NCBI GenBank assembly: GCA_035649895.1
Contig: DASRIS010000186.1
Span: 94-64,093 of the forward strand
Direction: 5' to 3'
Origin: Micromonosporaceae bacterium
GTDB taxonomy: Bacteria; Actinomycetota; Actinomycetes; Mycobacteriales; Micromonosporaceae
Length of the DNA: 64,000 nt
A program made the position numbers and the translations under genes. Shown piece by piece: positions 1 to 28,835 of this stretch. Every line of letters begins with the position of its first letter. The first letter of the stretch is position 1. Below the pieces are notes generated by a model. That model saw only the letters and a program-made list of their open reading frames with translations, did no database searches and was not told where the DNA came from.

Positions 1-980
1 AGGGACTGCGGCTGATGGACGCGGCGATGGCCGTGAAGCGTGGTGTGCCGGGTGCTGCGTTGCCCGAGCGTCGCGAGCGCCGGGTCCGGTCCGCGACCCG
101 GGTGCTGGACCGGCCGCTCGACGAGGTGCCGGCCCGATCGGATGTTGCCGTGGACAACTTCGTACCCGTGCCGCCGTTCTGGGGCGAGCGAATCGTGAAA
201 GGCATCCCGCTCGCGGACTACGCCGGCTACCTGGACGAGCGCGCCACCTTCCTCGGCCAGTGGGGTCTGCGCGGCTCCCGCGGCGGCACCGGGCCGTCCT
301 ATGAGGACCTCGTGGAGACCGAGGGCCGGCCGCGGCTGCGTTACTGGCTGGACCGGCTGGTCGCCGACCAGGTGCTGGAGGCGGCCGTGGTGTACGGCTA
401 CTTCCCCTGCTACAGCGAGGGCAACACCGTTGTGGTGCTGGACGAGAACGGGCACGCGGAGCGGGCGCGCTTCGAGTTCCCGCGGCAGCGGCGGGACCGG
501 CGGCTGTGCATCGCCGACTTCTTCCGGCCATCTACTCCGGACGGTGACCGGGACGTGATCGCGTTCCAGCTCGTGACCGTTGGGCAGCCGGTGAGCGAGT
601 ACACGGCGAAGCTGTTCGCGCGGAACGCGTACCGGGACTACCTTGAGGTGCACGGGCTGTCGGTGCAGCTGACCGAGGCGCTGGCCGAGTACTGGCACCG
701 TCGGGTGCGCAGCGAGCTGGCGCTGCCGGACGGGTCCACTGTGGCCGGCGACGACCCGGCCGACCTCGCCGGCATCCTGCGTACGGAGTACCGCGGCTGC
801 CGCTACTCGTTCGGCTACCCGGCCTGTCCTGACCTGGAGGACCGGGCGAAGGTAGCTGCGCTGCTCGACTCCGAGCGGGTCGGGGTGACCCTGTCCGAGG
901 AGTTCCAGCTGCACCCGGAGCAGTCAACGGACGCCCTGATCGTCCACCACCCGGAGGCGAACTACTTCAACGCCAAATGA
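1..980 (+). CDS. metH: Cobalamin-dependent methionine synthase, C-terminal AdoMet-binding reactivation domain; 5' end lies outside the window
   Basis: Frame is open from nt 3. Contains VPVPPFWGERIV, ERATFLGQWGL, YGYFPC, RYSFGYPACPDLEDR and ends HHPEANYF, typical of the MetH activation domain. Stop at 978-980. Confidence 0.85.
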   Translation, partial: GLRLMDAAMAVKRGVPGAALPERRERRVRSATRVLDRPLDEVPARSDVAVDNFVPVPPFWGERIVKGIPLADYAGYLDERATFLGQWGLRGSRGGTGPSYEDLVETEGRPRLRYWLDRLVADQVLEAAVVYGYFPCYSEGNTVVVLDENGHAERARFEFPRQRRDRRLCIADFFRPSTPDGDRDVIAFQLVTVGQPVSEYTAKLFARNAYRDYLEVHGLSVQLTEALAEYWHRRVRSELALPDGSTVAGDDPADLAGILRTEYRGCRYSFGYPACPDLEDRAKVAALLDSERVGVTLSEEFQLHPEQSTDALIVHHPEANYFNAK

Positions 981-1188
981 CCGCGGGCGACTGGACAGCC
1001 CCTGACGTTGCTATGCCCAGCGTCAGTCGTGCCCAGGTGAGCATCCGGCAACCCTCCTCGCCGCACTGCGCACACCGGCCGGTGGTCCGGTGCGGGTCGG
1101 CCGGCTCGTCATGCTGGCGGATGACCTGCTGCGCAGCCCACTGGATGGCGTCTGGGTCGACCAGCCCATAGTCAACGGCGACAGGCAT
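967..1188 (-). CDS. Small hypothetical protein (73 aa) with a CAQCGEEGC cysteine motif
   Basis: ATG start and mostly G/C third codon positions. Its 3' end overlaps the metH stop by 14 nt. No family recognised. Confidence 0.35.
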   Translation of the reverse strand: MPVAVDYGLVDPDAIQWAAQQVIRQHDEPADPHRTTGRCAQCGEEGCRMLTWARLTLGIATSGAVQSPAVIWR

Positions 1189-1385
1189 GTGGGTACGGCC
1201 TTTCTCCCGGTGGGATGCATGAGCGCCCAGGCCTCGTCGGCACCGGCCGCCCGCGCGGCTGGGGGGCGGAGCGCGGCACCCCTACCGTGCCCAGTCGGTG
1301 ACGCTAGATGCGGCTCGCGCGGCGGCGTTGCAAAGCTGCAACACCCGCGCGCCGGGAGAGGCGCTTCCCGGCGGCGGACCGGGCG

Positions 1386-2582
1386 CTACGCCACGCCGAC
1401 CCGCTCAGCCAGGCCGTGCAGCTCCGCCCCCGGCCGGGCGCTCAACGCCCTGACGGTCTCTCTGACGAACCTCGACGCCCTGACCCGCTGGGGCGCGGTG
1501 CGCTCGCCGATCAGCAGCATGCGGGCCGCCTCTTTGCTGCGCCCAAGCCGCGCCAGGGCCCGGCCCGTGTCGATGTAGAACAGCGACTGCCGCGCCGCTA
1601 CCGGGATCAGCAGCGGGTTGGTCGTCCGGGCGATGGCGACCGCCTGACCCGGGTCGCCACCGTCGGTGTCCATGCTCACGCGCCAGATCCTGACGTTCGT
1701 CGGGCCGAAGTACAGGCAGTGCGTGTCCGTCTCGCCGGTGCGCCCGGCCAGCTGCCCAGCCTCGGTCAGGTGTGTGGTCGCATCCTGCCGCAGACCGCGG
1801 GCGGCGTAGGCACCGGCCAGATGCAGCATGCCGAGCATCTCCAGCGCCCCGGCCTGGTCGGTGTGCTCGTCCATCTCGACCGCGTGCCGGTCGGCCAGGT
1901 GCAGCGCCCGCCGGTACGACCCGCACGCCACGGCGGCGCGGGACAAGGTGAAGCCGGAGAAGCCGCGCAACGTGGGGTCTTCGACGGCATCCGCTGCCTG
2001 GTGACCAAGGCGGGCCGCCATCCAGCTCTCGGCGACGTAGCCGACGCTGGACAGGCAGACGAAGGCGTCGTAGGCGACCTGGACGAGCAGGCGCAGGGCC
2101 GGCTCGCGGTCTGGGCCATGGGTGAGCGCGTGCAGCCCGCGGATAAGGTCGGGTAGCAGCCGCAGGGCGCCCGCGTAGTCGCACCGCAGGCGCACGGCCT
2201 GCTCGGTATCCGCTAGCCGCCCCAGCTCCGGCAGCGGCCGGGCTGCACAGGTGGCCGGCTCGTCAAGCTCGGCGTCGATCAGTGCCTCGCGGACCTGGCC
2301 GACGCCGGCCAGCGCCGCGGCGACCTCAGGGTCAGCGGAGCCGGCCGGTACGCCCGCCAGCTCCGCCGTCGAGCACTCCAGGGCAGCGGCGATCTCCGCC
2401 AGCACGAACCGGTTGTCGGCACTGGTGATGCCGCGCTCGATGCGGCTCCACGTCGACGGGTCCAGGCCAGCGCGGCTGGCCGCGTACCGGATGCTCCACC
2501 CGCGTAGCTGGCGGCGCTGGGCAATCCGCTCGCCGATGCTCGTGTCCGGGTTGAGGCGTCGTCGTGCCATCGGTGCTCCCAA
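1386..2582 (-). CDS. XRE-family helix-turn-helix regulator with a ~320 aa helical (TPR-like) C-terminal domain
   Basis: N-terminus IGERIAQRRQLRGWSIRYAASRAGLDPSTWSRIERG is a classic Cro/C1 HTH. The long alpha-helical C-terminus ends in FGPTNVRIWRV. Alternative start at 2570. Confidence 0.8.
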   Translation of the reverse strand: MGAPMARRRLNPDTSIGERIAQRRQLRGWSIRYAASRAGLDPSTWSRIERGITSADNRFVLAEIAAALECSTAELAGVPAGSADPEVAAALAGVGQVREALIDAELDEPATCAARPLPELGRLADTEQAVRLRCDYAGALRLLPDLIRGLHALTHGPDREPALRLLVQVAYDAFVCLSSVGYVAESWMAARLGHQAADAVEDPTLRGFSGFTLSRAAVACGSYRRALHLADRHAVEMDEHTDQAGALEMLGMLHLAGAYAARGLRQDATTHLTEAGQLAGRTGETDTHCLYFGPTNVRIWRVSMDTDGGDPGQAVAIARTTNPLLIPVAARQSLFYIDTGRALARLGRSKEAARMLLIGERTAPQRVRASRFVRETVRALSARPGAELHGLAERVGVA

Positions 2583-2714
2583 GGTAGAGGACTTGGGCGG
2601 ACGACCGACCGGCCGCTACCCCGGCCGAGCCGCCTAGGCCAACGGTAGCGGGGCCGCATGCGCGTGGTTCAGTAACCACCCTCGACGCACGCCGTCGCGG
2701 CTGTCCCTGCTTCT

Positions 2715-5435
2715 TCATACGGCGAGGGCTATCGCAATGATCCCTGTTCCGAGTCCGACGAACAGGGTGTCGTCAACGGCGACGCAGCTGGTTGCTTGGT
2801 GGTGAACCAGGATGGTAATGATCAGTTCGCCGGTGGCCGGGTCCCACAGCCGTACCGTCCGGTCGGCGCTGGCGGAGGCGAGCAGGGTCCGTCCGCCCAC
2901 GCTGACCGTGCACACGCCGAGGACCAAGCTGGTGTGGCCGGTGAGGGTGTGTTCCAGGGTGCCGGTGGCCGGGTCCCACAGTCGTACCGTCTGGTCGGCG
3001 CTGGCGGAGGCGAGCAGGGTCCGTCCGCCCACGCTGACCGTGCACACTCCGTTGACCCCGCTGGTGTGGCCGGTGAGGGTGTGTTCCAGGGTGCCGGTGG
3101 CCGGGTCCCACAGCCGTACCGTCCGGTCGTCGCTGGCGGAGGCGAGCAGGGTCCGTCCGCCCACGCTGACCGTGCACACCCCGCGGACCCCGCCGGTGTG
3201 GCCGGTGAGGATGGCGTACTCGGTCCGGGGCCCGACGGCGGCCCACCTGCCGCGGTAGCGGGCGGGGTGGTCGGCGGCGACGGGTGCTCCGAGGCGGTCG
3301 AGGACGGTGGTGATGCTGAACTGCTCAACCCGCTCGCGGGGCGTGGCATCGGTCGCGAGCGAGGTCAGGCGCAGCAGCCGGGCACGGGTGTGACCGGCCG
3401 CGCTGGTGGCCTCGTCGGCCATGGGTATCAGGCGGGCTAGGTCGGCGTGCAGCAGGTAGGCATCGTCGGCCAGCAGCGTGTCGATGAGTCTGGCCTGCGC
3501 GGCGTGCAGGGGCAAGGAGCGCAGCAGGTACCCGTCGGCCGCGCCCCACCCGCCGCCGCGGCCGTGAGCCATGAACGCTTCAGCGACCGCCCGCTGCTGG
3601 GCGGGTAGGTCTGCGGTGTCCAGCAGGGTGTCGTTAAGGGCCTGGTGGAACAGCCGGTAGACCGGCTCGGGGCTGCCGGGGCTGGACTCGATGAGGAAGT
3701 TCGCCGCCGCCGAGGCGAGGAACTGGCTGAGCTGGCTGGTGGAGACCGGCTCACCGAGAGCGGCCAGGGCGACCTGCCACAGTGGCACGCTCAGCCCGGG
3801 GGCCTGGGCGTGGGCCAGCGCGGTGAACGCGGCCAACGTCCACGCCGGCCCGGTGGACGCCAGCCGCTGCAGGTACGTCCGCAGCGCCTGCGGCACGTCC
3901 TCGGGGAACGCCACCCGGTCCGGGTCGACCGCCACGGTGTCGTGCAGGCCGTGGGCGCGGGAGGCCAGGCCCGCGACGAGGAAGTTGCTCTGGGCCACCG
4001 CGGCGATCCGCGCGGCAACCGGTCGGGCCACCGCCGGGTCGGCGTACGGGTTACCGGGGCGTTCATCCCCGCGCAGCTGCAGGGTGGCCAGGGCGTACGC
4101 GGCCAGGTCGTCCGGTTCGAAGTACTCCGGGGTGTCCAGGTCAACCAGGGTGATGCCGCCGCCGAACGCGTCCAGCAGGCTCCCGCCGTGGTCGAAGCGG
4201 CGGGTGGCCACCAGGACCTGCGCCCCGACCTCGGCGCACCGCTGCGCGATAGGTAGCACGACCGAGGCGATGATGGTCCGCGCGTCAGCCGGCGTGGTGG
4301 CCTCGTCAAGGGCATCAAGGACCAGGTTGCAGGCCCGCCCCGGGCGCGCCGCCAGCCACTGGTACAGGCTCTCGGCCAGGTCCTCGACCCGGTTGGGCAG
4401 CCGCAGCGCCGCGGCCCGGGCGACCTCCTCGGCAACCTCCAGCGCGGTCTTGCCCTTGACGTGCACCGCGCAGGCCACCGACCCGACCGTGGCGCACACC
4501 TGTCCGTCGGCGGGCATCCGCCGGCGGAACTGCGCGTCGGCCGTTGTGACGACCCGGCCCAGCACCGCCGACTTGCCCACCCCCGGTGACCCGGTCACCA
4601 CCAGCACCCGCCGGTCCCGCGGCGGCGCGTCCAACCAGCCCACGATGCGGGTCAGTGCCGCCCGCCGCCCCTGGAACCGGTGCCCGCGCTCACTGCGCCG
4701 GGTCACCCCCCGCGCGCGGGGGTCCCAGTGCCGGTCCGCCTCCACGTCCGCGGCCAGGGTCCATCCCCACGCCGCGTGCGCGACCTCACCGGCGTCGTCG
4801 ACACGCCACCCGGCCAGCACCGACAGCTTCGCCTCGGGCAAGGCCAGGTCGGCGTGGTGCAAGGTGACCGCGGTCGCGTCCCCTTTGTGTGCACCCCCCG
4901 CCTGGGTCTGCCCGACCAGGCCGACCACCCGCTGGTAGCGCAGCGACCACACGCCGGTGCCGCTGAACCCCCGCTCCACCACATACCGGGACTCGGTGTC
5001 CAGCCGCACGTACCCGTCGGCCAGCACCGCCCCCACCCGCCCGTGCGCGTCGTTGCCCTTCGGGAAGCTGGCCGGGAACCCAAACGCCCACCAGGGGTGA
5101 CCGAGCAGGTGCGCCGGCTGCGGGCACAGTATCGGCGCCGGCATCACCCCCACCGGCTCGGCGAGCTCCAGCACCGCCACGTCGACCTCAGCGTCCCAGG
5201 CGACGATCCTGGCCACGCGCACCCGCGGCACCGGGACCAGGTTCGCCTTGCGGAACGCCACCTCCAGCTGCCCCGGCTCGTCGCGGTACCTTGCGACCAC
5301 GTGGTCGCAGGTCAACACCTGCGTCGCGGCCACCAGCACGCCGGACCCGACCGGGCTGGCCGACGACGGCGCGTAGATCGCGACCGTCCACGGGTCTCGA
5401 TCCAACCCGACCACCGTCGGTTCAGGCATGGTCAC
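2715..5435 (-). CDS. Trypsin-like serine protease / STAND (NACHT-like) P-loop NTPase / WD40-repeat fusion protein (bacterial NLR-like)
   Basis: 906 aa. Protease triad contexts: GSGVLVAATQVLTCDHVV (His), EVDVAVLEL (Asp), ERGFSGTGVW (Ser). FQGRRAALTRIVGWL precedes Walker A VTGSPGVGKSAV; Walker B is NLVLDALDEA. A helical region follows, then 44-aa WD40 units TGHTxxVxGVCTVSVGGRTLLASASxDxTVRLWDPATG. GTG start at 5435 (alternative ATG at 5429). Confidence 0.85.
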   Translation of the reverse strand: MTMPEPTVVGLDRDPWTVAIYAPSSASPVGSGVLVAATQVLTCDHVVARYRDEPGQLEVAFRKANLVPVPRVRVARIVAWDAEVDVAVLELAEPVGVMPAPILCPQPAHLLGHPWWAFGFPASFPKGNDAHGRVGAVLADGYVRLDTESRYVVERGFSGTGVWSLRYQRVVGLVGQTQAGGAHKGDATAVTLHHADLALPEAKLSVLAGWRVDDAGEVAHAAWGWTLAADVEADRHWDPRARGVTRRSERGHRFQGRRAALTRIVGWLDAPPRDRRVLVVTGSPGVGKSAVLGRVVTTADAQFRRRMPADGQVCATVGSVACAVHVKGKTALEVAEEVARAAALRLPNRVEDLAESLYQWLAARPGRACNLVLDALDEATTPADARTIIASVVLPIAQRCAEVGAQVLVATRRFDHGGSLLDAFGGGITLVDLDTPEYFEPDDLAAYALATLQLRGDERPGNPYADPAVARPVAARIAAVAQSNFLVAGLASRAHGLHDTVAVDPDRVAFPEDVPQALRTYLQRLASTGPAWTLAAFTALAHAQAPGLSVPLWQVALAALGEPVSTSQLSQFLASAAANFLIESSPGSPEPVYRLFHQALNDTLLDTADLPAQQRAVAEAFMAHGRGGGWGAADGYLLRSLPLHAAQARLIDTLLADDAYLLHADLARLIPMADEATSAAGHTRARLLRLTSLATDATPRERVEQFSITTVLDRLGAPVAADHPARYRGRWAAVGPRTEYAILTGHTGGVRGVCTVSVGGRTLLASASDDRTVRLWDPATGTLEHTLTGHTSGVNGVCTVSVGGRTLLASASADQTVRLWDPATGTLEHTLTGHTSLVLGVCTVSVGGRTLLASASADRTVRLWDPATGELIITILVHHQATSCVAVDDTLFVGLGTGIIAIALAV
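2814..3209 (-). repeat. Three tandem 132-bp (44-codon) WD40 units, about 95 % identical at the DNA level, inside the NLR-like gene
   Basis: In register 2829/2961/3093, adjacent units differ at 7 of 132 nt (first pair) and 7 of the first 111 nt (second pair). The differences cluster in codons 5, 6, 8, 26 and 28 of the unit. Confidence 0.9.
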
Positions 5436-5444
5436 CCGCCGATG

Positions 5445-5783
5445 TTACTGGTGCGGGGTGTCACCGGAACCGCCAGCCCGATCCGGCTGCCAGGACAGCG
5501 TCACCTCGAAGTTTCCCTCCGTCGCCGCCTTCGCCACGAACCAGTTCGCCGTCCCGGTCACCTTCACCCCGAACTTGACCTCCACCCCGTCCGGGCTCAA
5601 CGCCCGCACCTGCCCCAGGACCGCCCGCGCCGCCGCCACCGCCGGTGCGACCGCCTCCTGCACCCTCCCCGCGATCTCGTCAAGCCCGGCCGGAACGAAC
5701 CCCTCCACCGGCTCGACCTCAAACCGCACCGTGGTGTCGTCATCCACCTCGTACGTCACGACCTGCACCCCGGCCACCGGCAC
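5445..5783 (-). CDS. trypco2-like (CU044_2847-family-like) small protein, partner of the protease-STAND gene
   Basis: 112 aa. VVTYEVDDDTTVRFEVEP ... VEVKFGVKVTGTANWFVAKAATEGNFEVTLSW matches the family signature as I recall it. Its stop lies 9 nt upstream of the next gene's start on the same strand. GGGAGG SD; start at GTG 5783 or GTG 5777. Confidence 0.7.
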   Translation of the reverse strand: MPVAGVQVVTYEVDDDTTVRFEVEPVEGFVPAGLDEIAGRVQEAVAPAVAAARAVLGQVRALSPDGVEVKFGVKVTGTANWFVAKAATEGNFEVTLSWQPDRAGGSGDTPHQ

Positions 5784-5950
5784 ATCCTCCCTACCGAACG
5801 TCGCTCACTCGTTAGAGGTAACGCCTGGCATCCCTCGCCGAAACGCCCTCGCCGCCACGATCCAACCATCCGCGCGCAGCACAGCAGCGCACCGCAGTCC
5901 GGAACCACCCAGACTTCGACCGGCGGCTGGGCCTGTTCGCGGCCGAGGCG

Positions 5951-6196
5951 GTGGCGCACGCCACACGGAAGGAGGAGAGCGAGGAGTTCCTGCTGCTACA
6001 CGGTGCGGTCGACGCCCACCGGCTGCGCCGGATGTCGGGCGCGCTGAAGGCGGCGGAGGCGGTGGCGCCGACCCGACCGCATGCCCGCGCACCTGAGCCA
6101 GCGACCGGTAACCTGCTGACCGGCGCGCCCATCGCGATCTTCGACCGGGTCCGGGACGCCGTGCGGGACTGGCGTGACAAGAACCCGGACGACTGA
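5951..6196 (+). CDS. Hypothetical ORF, possibly a remnant of a longer gene
   Basis: The frame is open from 5822 to 6196 with G/C-rich third positions, but the first usable start is GTG 5951. No family recognised. Confidence 0.25.
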   Translation: MAHATRKEESEEFLLLHGAVDAHRLRRMSGALKAAEAVAPTRPHARAPEPATGNLLTGAPIAIFDRVRDAVRDWRDKNPDD

Positions 6197-6378
6197 TCCG
6201 TTGGCGCAAGCCCAGGGCCGGGGAAGATGAGCGGCGGCTCTGCCAGCGGAGACAGCGCCTGCGCGACTGCGTGATGGCGTACCAGCTCAGGCTCGGTCTG
6301 GTCCATTCTGGACCGGACCGGGCCAGCGAGCAGGATGTCCGCACTGGCTACGCCCGCCACCAACCGACGGGGGACACG

Positions 6379-6871
6379 ATGGACCGGGCTCCAGAGCCAC
6401 CAGACGGCGACGAGCGGGAGGTACTGCTGGGCTGGCTGGCCTTCCAACCGCGACGCGCTCGCCGCCAAGTGCGCGGGGATGACCGCCGACCAGCTGGTGC
6501 TCGCCTCCGCACCACCGTCGGACCTGTCCCTGCTCGGCCTGGTCCGGCACATGACCGAGATGGAGCGGGTCTACCTGGTCTACGCGCTCGGCGGCGGCGA
6601 CCTCAGCCTGGTCTACTGCACCGACGACGCCCCGGACGCCGACATCGTGGGCCTGGACCCGTCGATGTCCGGCCCGTCAGTCGAATGCTGGCACCAGGAG
6701 CGGGCCAGCGCCGACGCGCTGCTCGCCGCCTGCGGGTCGCTGGACACCGCAGGCGCGGGCAACCGCCGCTCGGTCCGGTGGAATCTGGTCAAGTTGATCC
6801 AGGAGTACGCCCGCCACAACGGCCACGCCGATATCGTCCGGGAGCGCATCGACGGCGCAACCGGCGAGTGA
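6379..6871 (+). pseudogene. DinB/DUF664 (mycothiol-transferase-like) gene interrupted by a 1-nt frameshift near 6448
   Basis: Frame 1 reads MDRAPEPPDGDEREVLLGWLAFQ up to 6447. Frame 2 continues RDALAAKCAGMTADQL ... LVRHMTEMERVY ... LIQEYARHNGHADIVRE. Joined, they give a normal ~164 aa DinB-fold protein. Confidence 0.7.
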
Positions 6872-6975
6872 GCCGGGAGAGGCCCTATCTCAGAGGCGAG
6901 AGCTGAAGCAGCCTCTCCGCTGGTGAGCGAGGAGGTAGTCCCCGTACGGTGCGGTCCTCGCGTCTGCCGCGCTCG

Positions 6976-7353
6976 TCAGGCCGCCGCCGGCGGTATCGAC
7001 CGAACCGCCCGGATCACGTCATCGATGTTGACCAGGTTCGTCTTGACCCGGCCGGCGAGCAATGACTCGATGGCGCGCCGGATCAACACTGACGCCGGGA
7101 CGCCCTCGGCCTCGGCCGCCTCCTCTAGGCGCCGGTTGAGGTCTTCGGGCAGGCGCAGCGAGCGGACCACGTTGAGCGGGGTTCCCGGGTCGCCTGGCGG
7201 GGGCAGCAGCAGTGCCAGCTCGGCCTCCTGCTCCGCCGTGCCGGGAACGGGCGTCAGGGAGTGCAGGAGGTCGTTGACCTGATCGGGGGTCATATCGCGC
7301 AGGTCGGGACTGGTCAGCGCGTCGCGGAACTGGCGAAACTCGGCGTTACTCAT
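6976..7353 (-). CDS. Ribbon-helix-helix (CopG/BrnA-like) antitoxin candidate
   Basis: VVRSLRLPEDLNRRLEEAAEAEGVPASVLIRRAIESLL is an RHH motif. The ATG at 7351-7353 overlaps the upstream gene's TGA (ATGA). An alternative ATG lies at 7365. Confidence 0.65.
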   Translation of the reverse strand: MSNAEFRQFRDALTSPDLRDMTPDQVNDLLHSLTPVPGTAEQEAELALLLPPPGDPGTPLNVVRSLRLPEDLNRRLEEAAEAEGVPASVLIRRAIESLLAGRVKTNLVNIDDVIRAVRSIPPAAA

Positions 7354-7628
7354 TTGCTCTCCCACGACTCGAACTCCTTCCGCTCGTCGTCGGTCATGTC
7401 GCGGGCACCCGCGATCTCGACGTCGAAGCCCCGCGCCAGCCGCGTCATGACAACCAACAGGCGGCCGTCCTTCGTGCGCCCACAGATGTAGAGCATCGAC
7501 AGGACGTAGGGGTGGCGGACCGGGACCGGCCGCCGACGGTCGCCGTAGAGCACCTGCAGAACCTCGTACGGCTCGACGCTGTTACGGTCGAGCACGGCGA
7601 ACGCGGTCGACAACCACTCGTAGGGCAC
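7350..7628 (-). CDS. Putative toxin (BrnT/DUF497-like; tentative) of a toxin-first TA pair
   Basis: 92 aa. PYEVLQVLYG ... ICGRTKDGRLLVVMTRLARGFDVEIAGARDMTDDERKEF resembles the BrnT layout. GTG start without an SD. Translationally coupled to the RHH gene. Confidence 0.5.
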   Translation of the reverse strand: MPYEWLSTAFAVLDRNSVEPYEVLQVLYGDRRRPVPVRHPYVLSMLYICGRTKDGRLLVVMTRLARGFDVEIAGARDMTDDERKEFESWESK

Positions 7629-7634
7629 TCGATC

Positions 7635-7659
7635 AATGTACTACGAAATGAGCTACGAA
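7635..7659 (-). promoter_or_regulatory. -10-like TACATT 6 nt upstream of the toxin GTG, plus two direct CTACGAA repeats (12-nt period); candidate leaderless promoter/operator
   Basis: On the minus strand: TTCGTAGCTCATTTCGTAGTACATTgatcgaGTG. Repeats lie at 7641-7647 and 7653-7659 (plus-strand coordinates). Confidence 0.3.
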
Positions 7660-7737
7660 CCGGTATCGCCAAGATCAAAGACCTGGTACTGCTGTCTACC
7701 GTCCGGGATGTCGGCGGGTGTGGCAGCGGCGGCGGGC

Positions 7738-7846
7738 TCAGGCGAGGGCCCGGTCCACCGCGTCGGGGAAGAGGACCCGCTCCAGCACCAGGTGCACCAG
7801 CCCCACGGTCGCCGCCCGCTCACCCAGCTCGCTTGGCACGATTCGC
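7738..7846 (-). pseudogene. Orphan copy of the last 36 codons plus stop of the ROK regulator gene
   Basis: 7735-7846 aligns with 8370-8481 (about 92 % identity). It translates to RIVPSELGERAATVGLVHLVLERVLFPDAVDRALA*, against ...VLSPEAVDRALA* in the intact gene. Confidence 0.8.
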
Positions 7847-7854
7847 TTTGGAAT

Positions 7855-8288
7855 TCATTGATTCTCTTCGAGCCTAGTGTTGCTGCGGACGGTCTCGCGA
7901 TCGATCTCGGCCTGCTCGCGCGCGATGCGGCGGGCAGTGTCGTTGATGGCGGCCTCGGCGCGGTCCAGCCGCTGCTGTGAGCGGACCAGCGCGGCGCGGG
8001 CGAGCTCCAACGCCTCTGTGCTGCGGTCGACGTGCTGTTCTGCGGCTACACGCAGACGGCGGCTGCGCTCATCGAGCTCCTCCTGCCGTTTGACGAGCCA
8101 GCACTCGCGGGCGTCGGCGATCGTCTCCCGTCGTTGGCGAGCGTCTCGCGTTCGTCGGCGGCCCGGTCCCGTCTGTCGGCGGCGTGCTCTCGCTCGACGA
8201 GCCTGCGCTCGTGGCCAGCCACCAGGCGCTCGCAACCCTCCAGCGTCTGCTCCTGTTGGGCACGCGGCTTCTGCTTGCGGTCGGTCAC
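7855..8288 (-). pseudogene. Arg/Asp/Glu-rich coiled-coil protein gene, apparently frameshifted near 8127
   Basis: GGAG SD plus GTG 8288 gives MTDRKQKPRAQQEQ...ADERETLANDG. The coiled coil continues in another frame as ETIADARECWLVKRQEELDERSRRL...RLEENQ*, with the stop at 7855. Confidence 0.55.
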
Positions 8289-8372
8289 GGCTGCACTCCG
8301 TGCTACGCATGGCTGCTTGCGTCTGTATCACCCAGGCTACCAACGAGATGAGCCACGAGCCCGCGGTCCGGC

Positions 8373-9545
8373 TCAGGCGAGGGCCCGGTCCACCGCTTCG
8401 GGTGAGAGCACCCGCTCCAGCACCAGGTGCACCAGGCCCACGGTCGCCGCGCGCTCGCCCAGCTCGCTCGGCACGATCCGCAGCCCCTCGGTGCTGCGGC
8501 CCAGCGTGACGTGGCGTACCCGGGATGCGACGGTCTCCACGACGGAGGGCAGGGCGCCGATGGTGCCGCCGAGCACGAGCGTGCGCGGGTTGGTCAGCGC
8601 GATCAGCGCGGCCAGCACGCTGCCGACCCGGCGCGCGGCCGCCCGCAGCGCGGCCCGCACCGCCGGGTCCCGGCGCAGGGCCCGCTCGGCCAGGTCGTCC
8701 AGGCAGGTCACGCCGGCGGGGCGGAGCCGGGCCAGCAGGGCATGACCTGAGGCGTACGCGGCGAGGCAGCCCAGCCGCCCGCAGCGGCACTCCGGCCCGC
8801 CCCGGCTGACCGTGACGTGCCCGATGTCCCCGGCGGCGCCGTCGTCGCCACCGAGGCTGCGGCCGTCGACCACGAGCCCGGCCCCGATGCCGCTGGCCCA
8901 CTTGACGCCGAGCAGCGTGGCGCCAGCATGCCGGGTCGCCTCGCCGAGCACCAGCGCCCGCGCGTCGTTCTCCAGCACCAGCGGCACCGGCCACTGCTCC
9001 CGCAGCCGCTCCAGCAGCGGGTAGCTCTCCCAGCCCGGCATCGTCGTGGTCGGCCCGGTCAGCCCGGTCGCCGGGGAGACCGGCCCGGGCAGGCCGACCC
9101 CGACCCCGATGAGCCGCTCCCCGCGACCCCGGGAGAGCAGGGTACGGGCCAGCGTCACCAGCGCCCGTACGGTCCGGTCGGGCGGCGTGCTCGGGACGTC
9201 CAGGCGTACCCCGGCGCAGCGCAGCTCGGCACCTGGCACGCCGGTCACGGCGACCCGGCCATGGGTGTGCCCGACGTCGATGGTGAGCACCACCATGTGC
9301 CGGTCGTCGAAGCGGATCAGCTCGGCCGGGCGCCCGCCGAGCGAGGCGCCCACCCCGGCCGCGTAGACCAGCCCGTGCCGGAACAGCGGCCCCAGCCGGT
9401 CCAGCAGGGTGGGGCGGGACATCCCGGTGGCCTCGATCAGCTGCTGGCGGGTCCAGGCCGGGCGCGAGCGGATCAGCGCCAGCAGGTGTCCCGAGGTCGC
9501 GCCCTGCAACGGCCGCGGCGGGCCGGGTTTCGGCGTGTCGGTCAC
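8373..9545 (-). CDS. ROK-family transcriptional regulator (N-terminal wHTH plus sugar-kinase-like domain)
   Basis: HLLALIRSRPAWTRQQLIEATGMSRPTL, then VLTIDVGHTHGRVAV, GVGLPGPV and CRCGRLGCLAAYASG (ROK zinc motif). Confidence 0.85.
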   Translation of the reverse strand: MTDTPKPGPPRPLQGATSGHLLALIRSRPAWTRQQLIEATGMSRPTLLDRLGPLFRHGLVYAAGVGASLGGRPAELIRFDDRHMVVLTIDVGHTHGRVAVTGVPGAELRCAGVRLDVPSTPPDRTVRALVTLARTLLSRGRGERLIGVGVGLPGPVSPATGLTGPTTTMPGWESYPLLERLREQWPVPLVLENDARALVLGEATRHAGATLLGVKWASGIGAGLVVDGRSLGGDDGAAGDIGHVTVSRGGPECRCGRLGCLAAYASGHALLARLRPAGVTCLDDLAERALRRDPAVRAALRAAARRVGSVLAALIALTNPRTLVLGGTIGALPSVVETVASRVRHVTLGRSTEGLRIVPSELGERAATVGLVHLVLERVLSPEAVDRALA

Positions 9546-9577
9546 TGTGCCCCATTGACAGCTCGAGCGGCGGGCTG

Positions 9578-9610
9578 AGAACTTGTGTCAGCTAGTTTGA
9601 CAAAAGTTCT
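9578..9610. promoter_or_regulatory. 13-nt inverted repeat (12/13 match) in the ROK / ABC-operon divergent intergenic region; candidate operator
   Basis: AGAACTTGTGTCA (9578-9590), 7-nt spacer, TGACAAAAGTTCT (9598-9610). It lies 26 nt upstream of the ATG at 9636. Confidence 0.4.
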
Positions 9611-9635
9611 GCCATGACACATCCAGGGAGCCTCG

Positions 9636-10976
9636 ATGACGAACAGTTCCTGGTACGGCCCGAGAGTCAGCCGGCGCGCCGCGTTGGGCCTCGGCCTCGG
9701 TGTGGCGGCAGCGCCGGCCTTGGCCGCCTGTGGTGGCGTGTCCACCTCGGGCGCGGACGGCGGCAGCGGATCCGTCAGCTTCCTATGCACCCAGTTCGCC
9801 CCGGTCGAGGAGCGGCAGCGCTTCGAGCAGATCCTGAGCAACCGGGTGACCACCGCCAAGGTCGCCTACAACACGGCCGACGGCGGGGTGTTCGCATCCA
9901 CCATCCAGTCCCAGGTCGAGGCGGGCAAGGTGCAGGTCGGCCTGGTCGGCGGCCTGCACGGCGAGCTCGCCCCGCACGCCAGCCGCCTCACCGACCTCGA
10001 CGACCTGGTCACCGCGCTGGCCGACCGGGGCATCGAGGCCGACCTGACCGACCTCAGCAAGCTCGGCGGCAACGCCGCCAAGTACATACCGTGGATGCAG
10101 GCCTCCTACGTCGTCGCGGTCAACAAGAAGGCGCTGCAGTGGCTGCCCAGCGGCGCCGACCCGCAGAAGCTCACCTACGACCAGCTGCTGGCGTGGGCGG
10201 CGGCGGCCAAGGCCGGCAACGGCGGCAAGGCCGTCCTCGGCATCCCGGCCGGGCCGAAGGGGCTCTACCACCGGTTCTTCCAGGGCTTCCTGCTGCCCAG
10301 CTTCACCGGCGGGCAGATCACCACGTTCCGCAGCCCGGAGGCCGTGCAGGCCTGGCAGTACATGAAGGAGCTGTGGGCCAACACGACCCCGGCCTCCACC
10401 AACTACGACTTCATGCAGGAGCCGCTGCAGCGCGGCGAGGTGCTCATCGCCTGGGACCACGTGGCCCGCCTGGTCAACGCGCCGAAGGAGAAGCCGGACG
10501 ACTGGCTGATGGTGCCCGCGCCACGGGGCCCGAAGGGACTGGGCTACCTGCTCGTCGTGGTGGGCCTCGGCATCCCCCGCGGCGCCCCCGACGTGGACAA
10601 GGTCAAGGAGGTCATCAAGGCCCTCACCAACCCGGACACCCAGCTGGACGTGCTGCGCCAGAACGCGTTCTTCCCGACCGTCAAGGCCACGCTCCCCAGC
10701 GACCTGCCGCCGAACATCTCCCTGGAGGCCGCGGCCGTGCAGGCCCAGCAGGGCGCCAGCGAGGCGGTCCTGTCGCTGCCGCCGGTGGGCCTGGGCGCCA
10801 AGGACGGGGAGGTCTCGCAGATCTTCAAGAACACGTTCAAGGAGATCTGCCTCGACCGCAAGCCGGTGCCGCAGGTGCTCGACGCGCAGGCCAAGCAGCT
10901 CAACACGATCCTGGACCAGCTGAAGGTCCCGTGCTGGAAGCCGGACCCCGCCGGTCAGACCTGCAAGGTGATGTGA
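9636..10976 (+). CDS. ABC transporter sugar-binding lipoprotein (family-1 solute-binding protein)
   Basis: Tat-like/lipoprotein signal RRAALGLGLGVAAAPALAACGG. GGGAG SD. Size and composition fit a carbohydrate SBP. Confidence 0.85.
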   Translation: MTNSSWYGPRVSRRAALGLGLGVAAAPALAACGGVSTSGADGGSGSVSFLCTQFAPVEERQRFEQILSNRVTTAKVAYNTADGGVFASTIQSQVEAGKVQVGLVGGLHGELAPHASRLTDLDDLVTALADRGIEADLTDLSKLGGNAAKYIPWMQASYVVAVNKKALQWLPSGADPQKLTYDQLLAWAAAAKAGNGGKAVLGIPAGPKGLYHRFFQGFLLPSFTGGQITTFRSPEAVQAWQYMKELWANTTPASTNYDFMQEPLQRGEVLIAWDHVARLVNAPKEKPDDWLMVPAPRGPKGLGYLLVVVGLGIPRGAPDVDKVKEVIKALTNPDTQLDVLRQNAFFPTVKATLPSDLPPNISLEAAAVQAQQGASEAVLSLPPVGLGAKDGEVSQIFKNTFKEICLDRKPVPQVLDAQAKQLNTILDQLKVPCWKPDPAGQTCKVM

Positions 10977-11839
10977 TGCCCCGGGCCCGTCGGCGCCGGG
11001 CACGCCTGCCCACGCCGATCCTGCTGATCGCGCCCTCGCTGGTCTTCATGACCGCCTTGTTCGCGTGGCCGCTGGTCGTCGGCGTCGCGCAGGCGTTCAC
11101 CGGGGTCGACGGGCCCACCCTCAGCCACGCGCAGCGCATGCTCGACGACCCGTACTTCTGGCCGGCCGCGCGCAACACCGTGCTGCTGATCGTGGTCCTG
11201 ATCCCGCTGCAGTTCGCGTTCGCCCTCACCATGGCGCTGGTGCTGCGCGAGCGGCCGAGGTTCTCCGGCCTCTACTTCTACATCTGGGTGGTCCCGCTGG
11301 CCATCAGCGACCTGGCCGCCGGCCTGGTCTGGCTGTCCATCTTCACCGACCGGGGCTACCTCAACTCGGTGCTGGACCGGCTGGGCGTCGAGCCCTACTC
11401 GTGGCTGTCCTACGAGCACCCGACGACGGTCTTCCTCGCCGTGCTCATCGCCGAGCTGTGGCGGGCGACGTCGCTGGTCTTCGTCATCATCGTGGCCGGC
11501 CTGCAGGGCATCCCGCAGGACTACGACGAGGCGGCGGCGGTCTTCGGCGCCACCTACTGGCAGCGGCTGCGCCACGTCATCCTGCCGCAGCTGCGGCCCA
11601 GCCTCCAGGTGGCGATGATCCTGCGCACGATCCTGGCCTTCCAGACCTTCGCGGTGGCGCAGGCGCTGGCCGGGCGGGACTTCCCGCTGCTGGTCGGGGA
11701 GACCTACCACTGGTACAACACCCTCCAGAACGCCAACGTCGCGGCGGTCATCGCCCTGGTCGTGCTCGGGGCCTCGATGGTCACCTCAGTGGCGTACCTG
11801 CGGCTGCTGCGCGACCGCACCACGGAGGTGGCGACATGA
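10976..11839 (+). CDS. Carbohydrate ABC transporter permease (MalF/UgpA-like)
   Basis: Six hydrophobic segments. EAA-type loop DYDEAAAVFGATYWQRLRHVILPQLRP. Its ATG shares one nt with the upstream TGA. Confidence 0.85.
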   Translation: MPRARRRRARLPTPILLIAPSLVFMTALFAWPLVVGVAQAFTGVDGPTLSHAQRMLDDPYFWPAARNTVLLIVVLIPLQFAFALTMALVLRERPRFSGLYFYIWVVPLAISDLAAGLVWLSIFTDRGYLNSVLDRLGVEPYSWLSYEHPTTVFLAVLIAELWRATSLVFVIIVAGLQGIPQDYDEAAAVFGATYWQRLRHVILPQLRPSLQVAMILRTILAFQTFAVAQALAGRDFPLLVGETYHWYNTLQNANVAAVIALVVLGASMVTSVAYLRLLRDRTTEVAT

Positions 11840-11858
11840 GCGCGACGGAGGTGACGGC

Positions 11859-12737
11859 ATGAGCGCGCCCGCCGCGGTGCGCCGCCCGCCCGCGCCGGCG
11901 GCCACCGCGCCGCCCCGGCCGCGCCGGTCCAGCCGGCGCCGCAAGGCGGTGCTGCTCCAGCTCGCGTGCCTGGCCATCACGGCCTTCATGGGGGTGCCGC
12001 TCTACCTCATCACGCTGGCTGCGCTGTCCAGCCGGGCGGCGCTCAACCGGTTCCCGCTGTCGCTGCTGCCTACCGATCTCTCCACCGAGACGATGTCCCG
12101 GTTCCTCGACTCCACCGGGGTCGTCCCGGGCTTTGTCAACTCGCTCATCGTCGGCCTGTCCACACTGGTCTTCGCGCTGCTGGTCGGGGTGCCGGCCGGC
12201 TACGCGCTGTCCCGCTACGCGTTCCGCGGGCGCGACCCGTACCAGCTGTTCCTGCTGCTGACCCGGGCGCTGCCGATCGTGGTGCTGTCGGTGCCGCTGG
12301 CAAAGGTCTTCCTCACCACCAACCTCTACGACACGACGTACGCGGTGACGCTGCTGCACACGGCGCTGGCGCTGCCCACCACCGTGCTGATCACCGCGGC
12401 GGTGTTCGTCTCGGTCCCGCGCGACCACGAGGAGGCCGCGGCCGTCCTCGGTGCCAACGCGGCCCAGGCGTTCGTCCGGGTCGTGCTGCCGCAGGCGCTG
12501 CCGGGCATCGCGGCCTCGGCCATGTTCACCTTCGTCATGTCGTGGAACGAGGTGCTCGGCGCCGCGATCCTGACCCTCAACCAGCGCACGCTGCCGGCGC
12601 AGGTGCTGGCCACGCTGGCCGACTCACCGTTGGCGTACCGGTTCGCCGGCGGCCTGGCGCTGGTCCTGCCCGCGCTGGTCTTCATCGCGGTGATGCGCAA
12701 GTACCTGGTCAACATGTGGGGGACGACCCTGCGATGA
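11859..12737 (+). CDS. Carbohydrate ABC transporter permease (MalG/UgpE-like)
   Basis: EAA loop DHEEAAAVLGANAAQAFVRVVLPQALPG and multiple TM segments. Confidence 0.85.
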   Translation: MSAPAAVRRPPAPAATAPPRPRRSSRRRKAVLLQLACLAITAFMGVPLYLITLAALSSRAALNRFPLSLLPTDLSTETMSRFLDSTGVVPGFVNSLIVGLSTLVFALLVGVPAGYALSRYAFRGRDPYQLFLLLTRALPIVVLSVPLAKVFLTTNLYDTTYAVTLLHTALALPTTVLITAAVFVSVPRDHEEAAAVLGANAAQAFVRVVLPQALPGIAASAMFTFVMSWNEVLGAAILTLNQRTLPAQVLATLADSPLAYRFAGGLALVLPALVFIAVMRKYLVNMWGTTLR

Positions 12738-12756
12738 GCGACGCGGAGGGGCCGGC

Positions 12757-13884
12757 ATGGCCGACATCGTGATCAGCGAGCTGGTGAAGACCTACCCCGG
12801 TGGCCAGGTGCGGGCCACCGACGACGTGTCGCTGACCGTCGCCGACGGCGAGTTCGTCGTGCTGGTCGGGCCGAGCGGCTGCGGCAAGACCACGCTGCTG
12901 CGGATGGTGGCCGGGCTGGAGACCCCGGACAACGGCAGCATCGCCATCGCCGGTCGGGACGTCACCGACCTGCCACCCCGGCAGCGCAACATCTCCATGG
13001 TGTTCCAGTCCTACGCGATCTTCCCGCACATGCGGGTGCGCCATAACATCGGGTTCGGCCTGCGCATGCGCAAGGTGCCCGCGGCGCAGGTCAACGAGCG
13101 GGTGCGCCGGGCCGCCGAGGTGCTGGAGCTCACCGACTACCTGGACCGCTACCCGGCCCAGCTCTCCGGCGGCCAGCGCCAGCGGGTCGCGGTGGCCCGG
13201 GCCATCGTCGTCGACACCGGCGTGCTGCTGATGGACGAGCCGCTGTCCAACCTGGACGCCCTGCTGCGGCTGCAGTTCCGCGCCGAGCTGAAGAAGATCG
13301 TGCGCCAGATCGGCACCACCACCCTCTACGTCACCCACGACCAGGCCGAGGCGATGTCCCTGGGCGACCGGGTCGCGGTGATGCGCGGCGGGCGCATCGC
13401 CCAGATCGGGCCGCCCCTTGAGGTGTACGACCGGCCGAGCGAGCGCTTTGTCGGCGGGTTCCTCGGCTCGCCGCCGATGAACTTCTTCCCGGCCGTGGTG
13501 CGCCGCGCCGACGGCGGCGCCCGGCTCTGGGTCGGTGACCAGGTGCTGGCGGCACCTGCGCACCTGGCCACGTACGATGGGCGTGAGGTGACTGTCGGGT
13601 TGCGGGCGGAGAACATTGACGTGGCCACGGCCGCCGGGGACGGGCCGGCGGGCGGTGGGCCTGCGAGCGGCGGGTCGGCCGGTGGGCCGGTGCGGGCCAC
13701 CGTCGAGGTGGTGGAGCCGACCGGCGCGTCGGTGCTGCTGACCGTGCGGCTCGAGGGCCACGAGCTCAAGGTGCAGGCGCCGCCCGGGTACCAGGTGGAG
13801 CCGGACAGCCCGGTGTGGCTGCGATGCCGGCCGGAGAGCCTGCGCTTCTACGACGCCGAGACCGCGCTGGCACTGGTCTCGTGA
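12757..13884 (+). CDS. ABC transporter ATP-binding protein (MalK/UgpC-type)
   Basis: Walker A GPSGCGKTT, signature LSGGQRQRVAVARA, Walker B LLMDEPLSNLD, and a C-terminal TOBE-like regulatory domain. Confidence 0.9.
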   Translation: MADIVISELVKTYPGGQVRATDDVSLTVADGEFVVLVGPSGCGKTTLLRMVAGLETPDNGSIAIAGRDVTDLPPRQRNISMVFQSYAIFPHMRVRHNIGFGLRMRKVPAAQVNERVRRAAEVLELTDYLDRYPAQLSGGQRQRVAVARAIVVDTGVLLMDEPLSNLDALLRLQFRAELKKIVRQIGTTTLYVTHDQAEAMSLGDRVAVMRGGRIAQIGPPLEVYDRPSERFVGGFLGSPPMNFFPAVVRRADGGARLWVGDQVLAAPAHLATYDGREVTVGLRAENIDVATAAGDGPAGGGPASGGSAGGPVRATVEVVEPTGASVLLTVRLEGHELKVQAPPGYQVEPDSPVWLRCRPESLRFYDAETALALVS

Positions 13885-15263: not shown

Positions 15264-15349
15264 GCCTCGCCCCCGGGCCGTGCCGCGGAGCCCGCGCCGC
15301 TGCGCCTCAGCCGGGCGCGGCGGGCATGATCCCCGGAGCGTGCGGGTAG

Positions 15350-16081
15350 ATGGGTGCCATGCCACCGCCTGTCAGCTCATCCCGGGCAGCCCGGCTCGCC
15401 GCGCTCGTCGTCGCGCTCGTCGTCGGTGCCGCCTGCTTTGTCGGAGGCACCGACGGCACCGACGGCACCGACCAGGGTGCGCCGGGCGCCCCCCGGCCGG
15501 ACGCGACCGAGTTCGCCCAGGACCTGCAGGGCGCGGCCGGCAGCGCCCAGGAGTACTGGCAGGCGCAGTTCGCCTCCGCCGGCCGCCGGTTCCAGCCGAT
15601 CCGGCGGATCATCCCGTACCGCCAGGAGGGCGAGGTGGAGTGCGGCGGGACGCCGCTACCGCGCAACAACGCGGTCTACTGCTCGGCCGGCGACTTCATG
15701 GCCTACGACGTGAACTGGGCCGCGGTGGCGTTCACCAAGCTCGGCGACGCGTTCGTCTACTACCTGCTCGGCCACGAGTACGCCCACGGCATCCAGGTGC
15801 GGCTCGGCGTGCGCTACGAGTACACCATCCAGCAGGAGCTGCAGGCCGACTGCATGGCCGGGGCCTACATCGGCGACTCGGTCCGGCAGGGCCAGCTGAA
15901 GCTGGAGGAGGGCGACCTGGAGGAGCTGCGCACCGGGCTCATCGCGGTCGGGGACGACCCGGACCAGCCCTGGTTCGCCCCTGGGGCGCACGGCACGGCC
16001 GAGGAGCGCACGGACGCGTTCTTCGCCGGGTACGAAGGCTCGCTGGCCCCGTGCAAGCTGCCCCTGACCGGGCGGCGCTGA
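15350..16081 (+). CDS. Secreted/lipoprotein neutral zinc metallopeptidase (YpfJ-like)
   Basis: Signal/lipobox ALVVGAAC. HExxH in YYLLGHEYAHGIQ with downstream QELQADCMAG. Confidence 0.75.
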   Translation: MGAMPPPVSSSRAARLAALVVALVVGAACFVGGTDGTDGTDQGAPGAPRPDATEFAQDLQGAAGSAQEYWQAQFASAGRRFQPIRRIIPYRQEGEVECGGTPLPRNNAVYCSAGDFMAYDVNWAAVAFTKLGDAFVYYLLGHEYAHGIQVRLGVRYEYTIQQELQADCMAGAYIGDSVRQGQLKLEEGDLEELRTGLIAVGDDPDQPWFAPGAHGTAEERTDAFFAGYEGSLAPCKLPLTGRR

Positions 16082-28712: not shown

Positions 28713-28722
28713 CCCCGGGCAC

Positions 28723-28754: not shown

Positions 28755-28835
28755 TCACCTATCTGGCCCCTGCGCCGCAACAGAGCGCCAGCGGATGCAG
28801 GCCGTTCGTACCCGAGACCGTCTAGGCTCGACGAC

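Follow-up and report, generated by a model that had tools for sequence, protein, structure and literature searches.

Near-identical WD40 repeats with hypervariable positions in a trypsin-STAND gene paired with Trypco1 on a Micromonosporaceae contig

We analysed a stretch of 64,000 nucleotides (further referred to as the window) from contig DASRIS010000186.1 of a Micromonosporaceae bacterium. The subject of the study is a minus-strand gene that encodes a trypsin-like protease, a STAND NTPase and an array of near-identical WD40 units in one protein, together with the small Trypco1 (Pepco-type) gene directly upstream of it. The array was pointed out in a first-pass annotation made from the letters of the window. 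The coordinates of the gene pair and of its features are collected in Table 1.

The exact database match of the window protein is NCBI HZN20349.1, described as 'MAG TPA: ... Micromonosporaceae bacterium'; the source is a metagenome-assembled genome (MAG) contig. A protein database search with the 906-aa sequence returned 829 homologues. An alternative start codon, ATG at 5429, would give a protein of 904 aa. The window has a G+C content of 73%, and several open reading frames (ORFs) in alternative frames overlap the array (e.g. 2773–3246, 2796–3440, 2812–3258 and 2822–3349). They were rejected as by-products of this composition, because the minus-strand frame of 906 codons has a third-position G+C content (GC3) of 0.92 and hundreds of homologues.

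Table 1. Features of the protease-STAND-WD40 gene and of its upstream partner. Positions are those of the window.
Feature	Position	Strand	Details
Trypco1 / Pepco-type small protein	5445..5783	(-)	112 aa; Pfam Trypco1 E 3.8e-20; NCBIfam CU044_2847 family E 8.7e-19
Trypsin-like protease / STAND NTPase / WD40 gene	2715..5435	(-)	ORF call; 906 aa from GTG start
Trypsin-like serine protease domain	4917..5348	(-)	aa 30–173; Pfam Trypsin_2 E 3e-14
STAND P-loop NTPase domain	4131..4679	(-)	aa ~253–435; Walker A GSPGVGKS, Walker B LVLDALDEA; Pfam AAA_16, AAA_22, NPHP3_N
Helical arm, from NTPase to propeller	3300..4130	(-)	aa ~436–712; almost all helix in the AlphaFold2 model, aligned with Apaf-1
Conserved strand before unit 1	3237..3257	(-)	aa 727–733, RWAAV; strand E727–733 in the model
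WD40 unit 1	3078..3209	(-)	aa 743–786; hypervariable residues G6 G7 R9 / D27 R29
Unit 1 hypervariable codons 6, 7, 9, 27, 29	3192–3194, 3189–3191, 3183–3185, 3129–3131, 3123–3125	(-)	
WD40 unit 2	2946..3077	(-)	aa 787–830; hypervariable residues S6 G7 N9 / A27 Q29
Unit 2 hypervariable codons 6, 7, 9, 27, 29	3060–3062, 3057–3059, 3051–3053, 2997–2999, 2991–2993	(-)	
WD40 unit 3	2814..2945	(-)	aa 831–874; hypervariable residues S6 L7 L9 / A27 R29
Degenerate terminal WD40 unit	2718..2813	(-)	aa 875–906, ILVHHQATSCVAVDDTLFVGLGTGIIAIALAV; C-terminus conserved family-wide

Architecture of the gene pair

Conservation of individual residues was assessed in an alignment of the window protein with 40 homologues. 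The putative protease triad H45, D85 and S158 (the latter within GFSGTG) is intact and invariant or nearly so, and judging by these residues the serine protease would be catalytically competent. The same degree of conservation is seen in the NTPase for G282, P284, G285, G287, K288 and S289 of the Walker A motif and for D374, D377 and E378 of the Walker B motif; the Pfam matches in this domain span aa ~253–390. W731 and A732 of the short strand preceding unit 1 are invariant, and this strand may have a role in closure of the propeller.

The AlphaFold2 model of the protein has a mean pLDDT of 83.9. Its best fold match in PDB, found with Foldseek, is full-length Apaf-1 (3sfz; E 6.9e-21, 786 aligned columns), with both the NTPase and the helical arm covered. 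Further matches are WD40 propellers, including actinobacterial PkwA and designer proteins derived from WRAP. Apaf-1 was reached by the fold search; a sequence search of PDB gave matches to the WD40 part only and none for the NTPase. With the AAA_16 and NPHP3_N matches, the Walker A and B motifs and the Apaf-1 fold, the WD40 repeats are placed C-terminal to a STAND NTPase within one protein.

Approximately 10 nt separate the end of the Trypco1 gene from the first codon of the protease-STAND gene, so that a gene of the Trypco1/2 family is adjacent to the gene of a trypsin-like protease. Trypco1 is directly upstream also in a sister contig (ENA ERZ27257760, k141_1155330; further L001) and at six of the seven other family loci examined (L002, L003, L004, L021, L023 and L024). 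It is found nowhere else in the neighbourhoods of the family loci, and the other neighbours are variable. Trypco1 and Trypco2 were defined as domains found alongside trypsin-like peptidases in those conflict systems of multicellular prokaryotes that depend on NTP (PMC7159879). The new name Pepco for Trypco1/2 comes from a 2025 preprint on a Streptomyces pair, in which the Pepco gene is located upstream of the trypsin-STAND gene SsAvs4 (10.1101/2025.11.14.688446). According to the same study, SsAvs4 activated by a phage ligand cuts a C-terminal tail of approximately 2 kDa off Pepco after the conserved Ile97, and the shortened Pepco behaves as a toxic beta-barrel pore, this biochemistry being shown for SsPepco. 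In the Trypco1 proteins of the family considered here, the motif ...NFEVTL(S/K/T)W is invariant, and the short tail after it is variable, with Gly, Pro and charged residues. Such an arrangement of the sequence is compatible with the cleavage logic of Pepco.

Repeat units and hypervariable codons

Tandem Repeats Finder reported a repeat at 2829–3210 with the period of 132, 2.9 copies, 94% matches, no indels and the score of 687. A 48-nt scaffold segment of the unit occurs in the window exactly three times, versus 0 occurrences expected from 100 shuffles. The array (2814–3209, minus strand) consists of three 132-bp WD40 units of 44 codons each, which are ~94% identical; the first-pass annotation, which set the identity of the three units at ~95%, is thus borne out. 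Over codons 1–39 the mean identity between the units is 0.87 for protein and 0.94 for nucleotide sequences, in agreement with the level of ~80–90% or more that characterises NLR-type sensor arrays of near-identical WD40 repeats. In the coding orientation, unit 1 (3209–3078) has the sequence LTGHTGGVRGVCTVSVGGRTLLASASDDRTVRLWDPATGTLEHT, unit 2 (3077–2946) reads ...SGVNG...ADQ..., and unit 3 (2945–2814) reads ...SLVLG...ADR...GELIIT. Unit 3 departs from the other units in its last five codons (ELIIT versus TLEHT).

Units 1 and 2 differ in seven nucleotides, five of which fall into four replaced codons (6, 9, 27 and 29) and two are synonymous (codons 10 and 32). Seven differences are also found between units 2 and 3 over codons 1–39: five nucleotides in three replaced codons (7, 9 and 29) and two synonymous changes. 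The first-pass annotation had given the same numbers with the same split; its restriction of the comparison of units 1 and 2 to the first 111 nt was misplaced, as the limit of ~111–117 nt belongs to comparisons involving unit 3. All amino acid changes between the units are confined to codons 6, 7, 9, 27 and 29. The residue combinations at these positions (GG-R, SG-N, SL-L and D-R, A-Q, A-R) had been read correctly, but the positions were numbered one too low (5, 6, 8, 26 and 28). Nucleotide changes at the variable codons take in all bases, e.g. GGG to TTG, CGC to CTC and GAC to GCC.

A fourth, degenerate unit that terminates the protein was absent from the first-pass annotation. In the AlphaFold2 model it forms three strands (882–887, 890–895 and 898–904), and the consensus of the C-terminus in the alignment with the homologues is ...IPVHHxAxAxxxxxxxLxVGLxxGxLxIxL.

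The five codons stand out by the type of changes. In pairwise comparisons of the three window units they have 15 non-synonymous and 0 synonymous differences (dN 0.70), versus 0 non-synonymous and 5 synonymous differences in the other 34 codons (dN 0, dS 0.057). The contrast between hypervariable and scaffold codons is observed in longer arrays of the family as well, with dN of 0.46 versus 0.039 in the 13-unit array of L003 and 0.32 versus 0.012 in the 11-unit array of L004.

The same positions vary throughout the family. We calculated within-array entropy for each of the 44 unit positions in 27 independent homologous arrays with the mean unit identity of at least 0.68. Positions 6, 7, 9, 27 and 29 together take ranks 1–4 and 7, the chance of five chosen positions being within the top seven of 44 equalling 1.9e-5. 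Entropy peaks at positions 27, 7, 9 and 6 (1.4–1.75 bits), and position 29 reaches 1.07 bits.

Three top-face interaction hot spots of WD40 proteins, R1-2, R1 and D-1, have been described (PMC3419727). When this rule is applied to the motif V8-N9-G10-V11, R1 corresponds to position 9 and R1-2 to position 7, and D-1 is position 27, which precedes Asp28. According to the strands of the blade in the AlphaFold2 model (A 750–758, B 761–768, C 772–777 and D 782–788), the D–A loop contains positions 6 and 7, the B–C turn contains positions 27 and 29, and strand A has position 9 at its beginning. The variation is thus confined to a few top-face positions and shows an excess of non-synonymous changes, and the proposal of the first-pass annotation that the variable positions lie near the top-face loops agrees both with the hot-spot rule and with the model.

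Comparison with the sister contig and the number of units

The sister contig L001, which bears a MEGAHIT k141 name, aligns to window positions 195–15414 at 99.5% identity, and its flanks are ~99.9% identical over ~14.6 kb. If the decayed end of the alignment (195–360) is set aside, the two sequences differ by 30 substitutions, 16 of which fall within the 396-bp array, at or next to the hypervariable codons of units 2 and 3 (binomial P = 5e-18). Unit 2 holds 12 of these 16 substitutions; the remaining 4 are in codons 7 and 9 of unit 3. The units of L001 are [GG-R/D-R], [DW-R/N-R] and [SG-N/A-R]. The third of them is chimeric, its codons 1–9 being equal to those of window unit 2 and its codons 10–44 to those of window unit 3, and unit 2 of L001 has private synonymous markers at codons 5 and 8. 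A donor for the DW-R/N-R block of L001 or for the SL-L block of the window was in neither case found in the other assembled array, so unseen units must exist. Each synonymous difference among the units of the window and L001 (codons 5, 8, 10 and 32) is adjacent to a hypervariable codon or at most three codons away from one; that the synonymous differences always flank hypervariable codons suggests exchange of short blocks rather than of single bases.

Two further differences between the contigs were observed outside the array. At window positions 195–360 (L001 15236–16186) homology decays, with 28 mismatches in ~165 bp, and stops at window position 195; past this point the window has an ORF with the MetH activation domain (15–980, plus strand) and L001 has a different gene of 578 aa. 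This break beside the module marks a recombination breakpoint specific to the strain, or else a chimeric join. At window position ~9241, inside a ROK-family gene (8373–9545, minus strand), the window and L001 differ by an in-frame insertion or deletion of 15 bp.

The assembled array of the window comprises three canonical units and one terminal unit. Among the 120 best full-length homologues the modal array has 13 canonical units and one conserved terminal unit, and the typical protein length is 1250–1480 aa. The assembled number is below that sufficient for closed propellers (at least 7 units generally, at least 10–11 in reactive HET alleles and 14 in this bacterial family).

A second homologue search used the non-repeat part of the protein only, thus avoiding bias to long arrays. 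It yielded a continuum of in-frame arrays having 0–6 units plus the terminal unit, all of them from metagenome or MAG contigs. In short arrays with several units (at most six, with the terminal unit kept; L015 is one of them) unit identity is mostly ~0.8–0.9, units containing indels, e.g. in L015, being counted by eye. Other family members break off within the array. When GTDB genomes were scanned for the exact 48-nt scaffold, one MAG contig was retrieved: L005 from MAG SMAG_U557 (MEGAHIT k141), an orthologue with 89% identity that ends inside the array after two units. P0122 (69% identity), P0123 (64%, a draft Plantactinospora genome) and P0161 carry a partial annotation, their sequences stopping within a WD40 unit. 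Arrays are likewise cut off by the contig end in four JGI family contigs, two of these with unit identity of 0.82–0.85.

On contigs of at least 1 Mb the arrays have ~9–13 units at the DNA level, several of them frameshifted, with one short exception, L022. At L021 (Dactylosporangium cerinum), L024 (Phytohabitans rumicis) and L023 (Dactylosporangium sp. CA-139066), located on contigs of at least 9.6 Mb, several WD40 arrays are frameshifted while 9–13 units persist in DNA, which reflects either frequent pseudogenisation or sequencing indels in repeats. The exception, L022 on the 4.7-Mb contig_272, has two units and lacks both the terminal unit and the upstream Trypco1 gene; it appears to be a decayed copy, showing that real truncations occur.

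A close orthologue with a resolved array was not found in the protein database, where the sister contig at 99% identity is followed by relatives with at most 69%, and a scan of JGI metagenomes for close orthologues gave only homologues with at most 55% identity.

Given an array far shorter than the family norm and the MAG source, the collapse of repeats in a short-read assembly, raised as a caveat in the first-pass annotation, has probably taken place. We rather favour the explanation that the true array has ~10–14 near-identical units and was collapsed to 3+1, some units perhaps being chimeric; the hypervariable signature would then be real, but the count and order of the units and part of the inter-strain difference would not. 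Both assemblies fit it, one being a 'MAG TPA' contig and the other carrying a MEGAHIT k141 name, and reads and k-mers have lengths similar to the 132 bp of the unit. The family mode of 13+1, the ~9–13 units on contigs of at least 1 Mb, the breaks inside the arrays of L005, P0122, P0123 and P0161, and the restriction to metagenome and MAG contigs of all in-frame arrays of at most six units keeping the terminal unit point in the same direction. So does the DW-R/N-R block of L001, with its private synonymous markers and a donor in neither assembled array. In a long-read study of the fungal (Podospora) counterparts, short-read assemblies were consistently too short, 'omitting or creating repeats' (PMC12222747). 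On the other side, two independent assemblies both give 3+1, the ORF is in frame with the conserved context of the first unit and the terminal unit kept, and the assembled units share no identical stretch of at least 141 nt, so that the final-k graph of the assembled sequence is unambiguous.

The agreement of the two assemblies speaks for a real contracted allele, in which unequal crossing-over between units deleted about ten of them and left 3+1. This explanation is possible, though clearly less likely than collapse. In-register deletions preserve the frame; the protease, NTPase and Trypco1 are intact in the window; and a truly truncated copy, L022, is present on a 4.7-Mb contig. Moreover, the crystal structure 6R5Y shows an 8-bladed propeller made of two four-blade WRAP fragments, and 4-blade fragments of PkwA are dimers in solution (PMC6805158). 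However, L022 lacks Trypco1 and the terminal unit and looks decayed rather than contracted in frame, and no in-frame short array was seen on contigs of at least 1 Mb. The two strains would need independent events reaching the same count, and the unit blocks without donors argue for unseen units. By analogy with the systems mentioned, the short allele, if real, could lack activity like short het alleles (PMC12222747), or could pair into an 8-bladed ring like the 4-blade WRAP fragments (PMC6805158).

It is improbable that the 3+1 array is real and, in addition, the two strains truly differ by cassette-like exchange of hypervariable blocks. If this were true, a bacterial NLR sensor would be re-specified on a strain-level timescale, and a minimal 4-blade WD40 sensor would close, as an 8-bladed propeller, only when two protomers pair inside the STAND oligomer, a coupling of ligand sensing and oligomerisation that has no described precedent among NLRs. 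More generally, arrays of near-identical repeats in MAGs are likely mis-sized, which makes unit number and order unfit for evolutionary or structural inference.

Proposed function, related systems and genomic surroundings

The combination of a trypsin-like protease, a STAND ATPase and WD40 repeats with the Apaf-1 fold and an upstream Trypco1/Pepco gene identifies the locus as a bacterial NLR-like conflict module. We propose, with the probability of about 0.75, that the three units serve for ligand recognition as the sensor repeats of an NLR-like module of two genes, with a conflict or anti-phage role, in a filamentous actinobacterium of the Micromonosporaceae. Four independent lines of evidence support the hypervariable-sensor signature suggested in the first-pass annotation: the selection statistics, the recurrence of the variable positions in 27 arrays, their structural location at hot spots, and the strain comparison, in which the differences between the two assemblies are concentrated at the same codons.

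By analogy with homologues and with the systems described in the literature, the module may act as follows. The WD40 propeller would bind a foreign or danger ligand via the top-face positions R1-2, R1 and D-1 and their neighbours (positions 6, 7, 9, 27 and 29). Ligand binding would permit oligomerisation of the STAND NTPase, which in turn would switch on the N-terminal trypsin-like protease. The protease would then cut the adjacent Trypco1/Pepco protein and remove its C-terminal tail, the probable site being just behind Leu96, which is invariant in NFEVTL|SW, and the clipped protein would form a membrane-permeabilising beta-barrel leading to cell death. Recombination or gene conversion between units may keep them near-identical and at the same time reshuffle short hypervariable blocks, allowing fast change of specificity.

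Several points weigh against this proposal. PADLOC and NCBIfam place the window protein in no named defence family. The selection statistics in the window are computed from three units (five distinct units with L001). The unit content differs between the window and L001, both of which are short-read-type assemblies, and the inter-strain differences in the array could partly or wholly be assembly chimeras and not biology. A single chain of 3+1 units cannot close a normal 7-bladed propeller, and the protein may be inactive if the 3+1 array is real. The putative cleavage site in Trypco1 is read from the conserved motif only. In the literature, we found no experiment on the window protein, nor on other members of the Trypco1 family with a WD40 sensor.

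As for a named defence family, the match to Avs1b covers only the protease part (aa 25–146) and scores 39.7 bits against the cut-off of 1500; no full-length model of Avs 1–4 was reached. Assignment by the weak likeness of the protease domain to Avs1b or to LmuA-type proteases in PADLOC and NCBIfam was rejected.

Diversification of a sensor was weighed against two other origins of the variation. Highly repetitive prokaryotic WD40 proteins have been read as products of recent duplication (PMC5587647), and with three units available in the window the array might be a recently amplified, selectively neutral repeat, its young duplicates differing by random drift. This is very unlikely in view of the distribution of changes (15 non-synonymous and no synonymous differences in the five hypervariable codons, no non-synonymous ones in the other 34), the variation of the same five positions in 27 other arrays (P ~2e-5) and the coincidence of these positions with structural binding hot spots. 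Targeted mutagenesis by a diversity-generating retroelement (DGR), which diversifies C-type-lectin sensors in related conflict systems with trypsin and Trypco1/2 neighbours (PMC7159879; 10.1101/2023.09.22.558884), was rejected as the least probable origin, given that Pfam reveals no reverse transcriptase in 43 of the 44 ORFs examined across the 64-kb window (the 81-aa ORF 5951–6196 was unscanned), the substitutions involve all bases and not adenine-templated positions, and the variable blocks recur as cassettes between units.

The sensor array proposed here has counterparts in several known systems. One likeness, noted already in the first-pass annotation and upheld by the position of near-identical units C-terminal to an NLR-like STAND domain, is to the fungal HNWD/NWD NLRs (HET-E, HET-D and HET-R of Podospora anserina). 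There, too, a STAND NTPase is followed by near-identical tandem WD40 units, the variation is found at a handful of top-face positions under diversifying selection, units are reshuffled between alleles, and short-read assemblies are too short. The fungal proteins differ in that their units are 42 aa long, their NTPase is a NACHT domain, a HET death domain is located at the N-terminus, and at least 10–11 repeats are required in reactive alleles, whereas the locus considered here has 44-aa units, an N-terminal trypsin-like protease, a separate Trypco1/Pepco effector, 3+1 assembled units and a bacterial host.

SsPepco-SsAvs4 of Streptomyces subrutilus (10.1101/2025.11.14.688446) resembles the gene pair in the small Trypco gene immediately upstream of the trypsin-STAND gene and in the Trypco protein, where a conserved hydrophobic residue is followed by a short disordered C-terminal tail. 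However, SsAvs4 recognises the phage portal protein, and the sensor in the window is a near-identical WD40 array; the window protein falls below the threshold of any Avs model. With Apaf-1 and the bacterial Apaf-1-like STANDs (PMC13581612) the window protein shares the NTPase, the helical arm and the C-terminal WD40 sensor, a protease replacing CARD in the bacterial proteins. Bacterial Apaf-1-like STANDs with WD40 sensors and N-terminal proteases have been catalogued; these variants carry a caspase-like protease (PMC13581612), while that of the window protein is trypsin-like. The blades of Apaf-1 are divergent, whereas those of the window family are near-identical and number 14 (4 in the window copy).

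Nearly identical WD40 blades are also known from WRAP (Npun_R6612) and from PkwA of Thermomonospora curvata, both from multicellular bacteria, which are the top sequence and structure matches of the repeat region. WRAP has 14 blades, forming two 7-bladed propellers. WRAP and PkwA differ from the window protein in their N-terminal parts (a Ser/Thr kinase in PkwA), and no Trypco1 partner is reported in the literature found on them. Finally, the DGR-diversified STAND/CLec 'antigen sensors' of multicellular bacteria (10.1101/2023.09.22.558884) combine a STAND NTPase, a trypsin-like peptidase, Trypco1/2 neighbours and a hypervariable sensor. Those sensors are diversified by reverse-transcriptase mutagenesis of a C-type-lectin fold, whereas recombination of repeats in a WD40 array is the proposed route here.

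The general pattern has been described for bacteria. Bacterial NLR-like proteins have WD40 and TPR repeats with strong internal conservation, which is likely tied to rapid diversification (10.1101/2020.01.06.895854), and among prokaryotic WD40 proteins those that are highly repetitive show variation at sites predicted to be hot spots (PMC5587647). These publications were absent from the first-pass annotation. What is new here is one member combining all these known features, not a new mechanism; if the assemblies are right, a strain pair with a cassette-level change on an almost identical background is new as well. Generation of new recognition specificities by shuffling of repeats is best known from fungal NLRs, and the locus illustrates it cleanly in a bacterium. 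Its sensor is joined to a protease/Pepco cell-death module, the biochemistry of which was worked out very recently and with another sensor. Should the strain-level differences be real, such loci could be used as markers of ongoing arms races in soil actinobacteria and as natural libraries of WD40 binders.

In the 43 ORFs scanned with Pfam, no further STAND or WD40 genes were found. The surroundings are of housekeeping character and include a sugar ABC transporter, a two-component system, a Pup-proteasome cluster, TatA/TatC and a HelY-like helicase. The Pup-proteasome cluster at 26946–34057 is complete: it contains an AAA ATPase of the Mpa/ARC type, two genes of the Pup-ligase family (Dop/PafA type) and two proteasome subunits, with WYL/WCX (PafBC-like) and TatA/TatC genes downstream. 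The cluster and its neighbours mark the region as core chromosome.

Around the module there is a small accessory islet with an HTH_31 gene, a DinB/MST-like gene and a probable toxin-antitoxin pair of the ribbon-helix-helix type. The HTH_31 gene (1386–2582, minus strand) is directly downstream of the WD40 gene and encodes a 398-aa XRE-type protein with a long C-terminal extension; it was rejected as a probable non-member of the module, being conserved in the sister strain only and not at other family loci. On the other side, a ribbon-helix-helix protein and a 92-aa ORF with no Pfam match are encoded by overlapping minus-strand ORFs (6976–7365 and 7350–7628) that look like a toxin-antitoxin pair and are conserved in L001. 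The DinB/mycothiol-S-transferase-like gene (6335–6871, plus strand) is located beside this pair.

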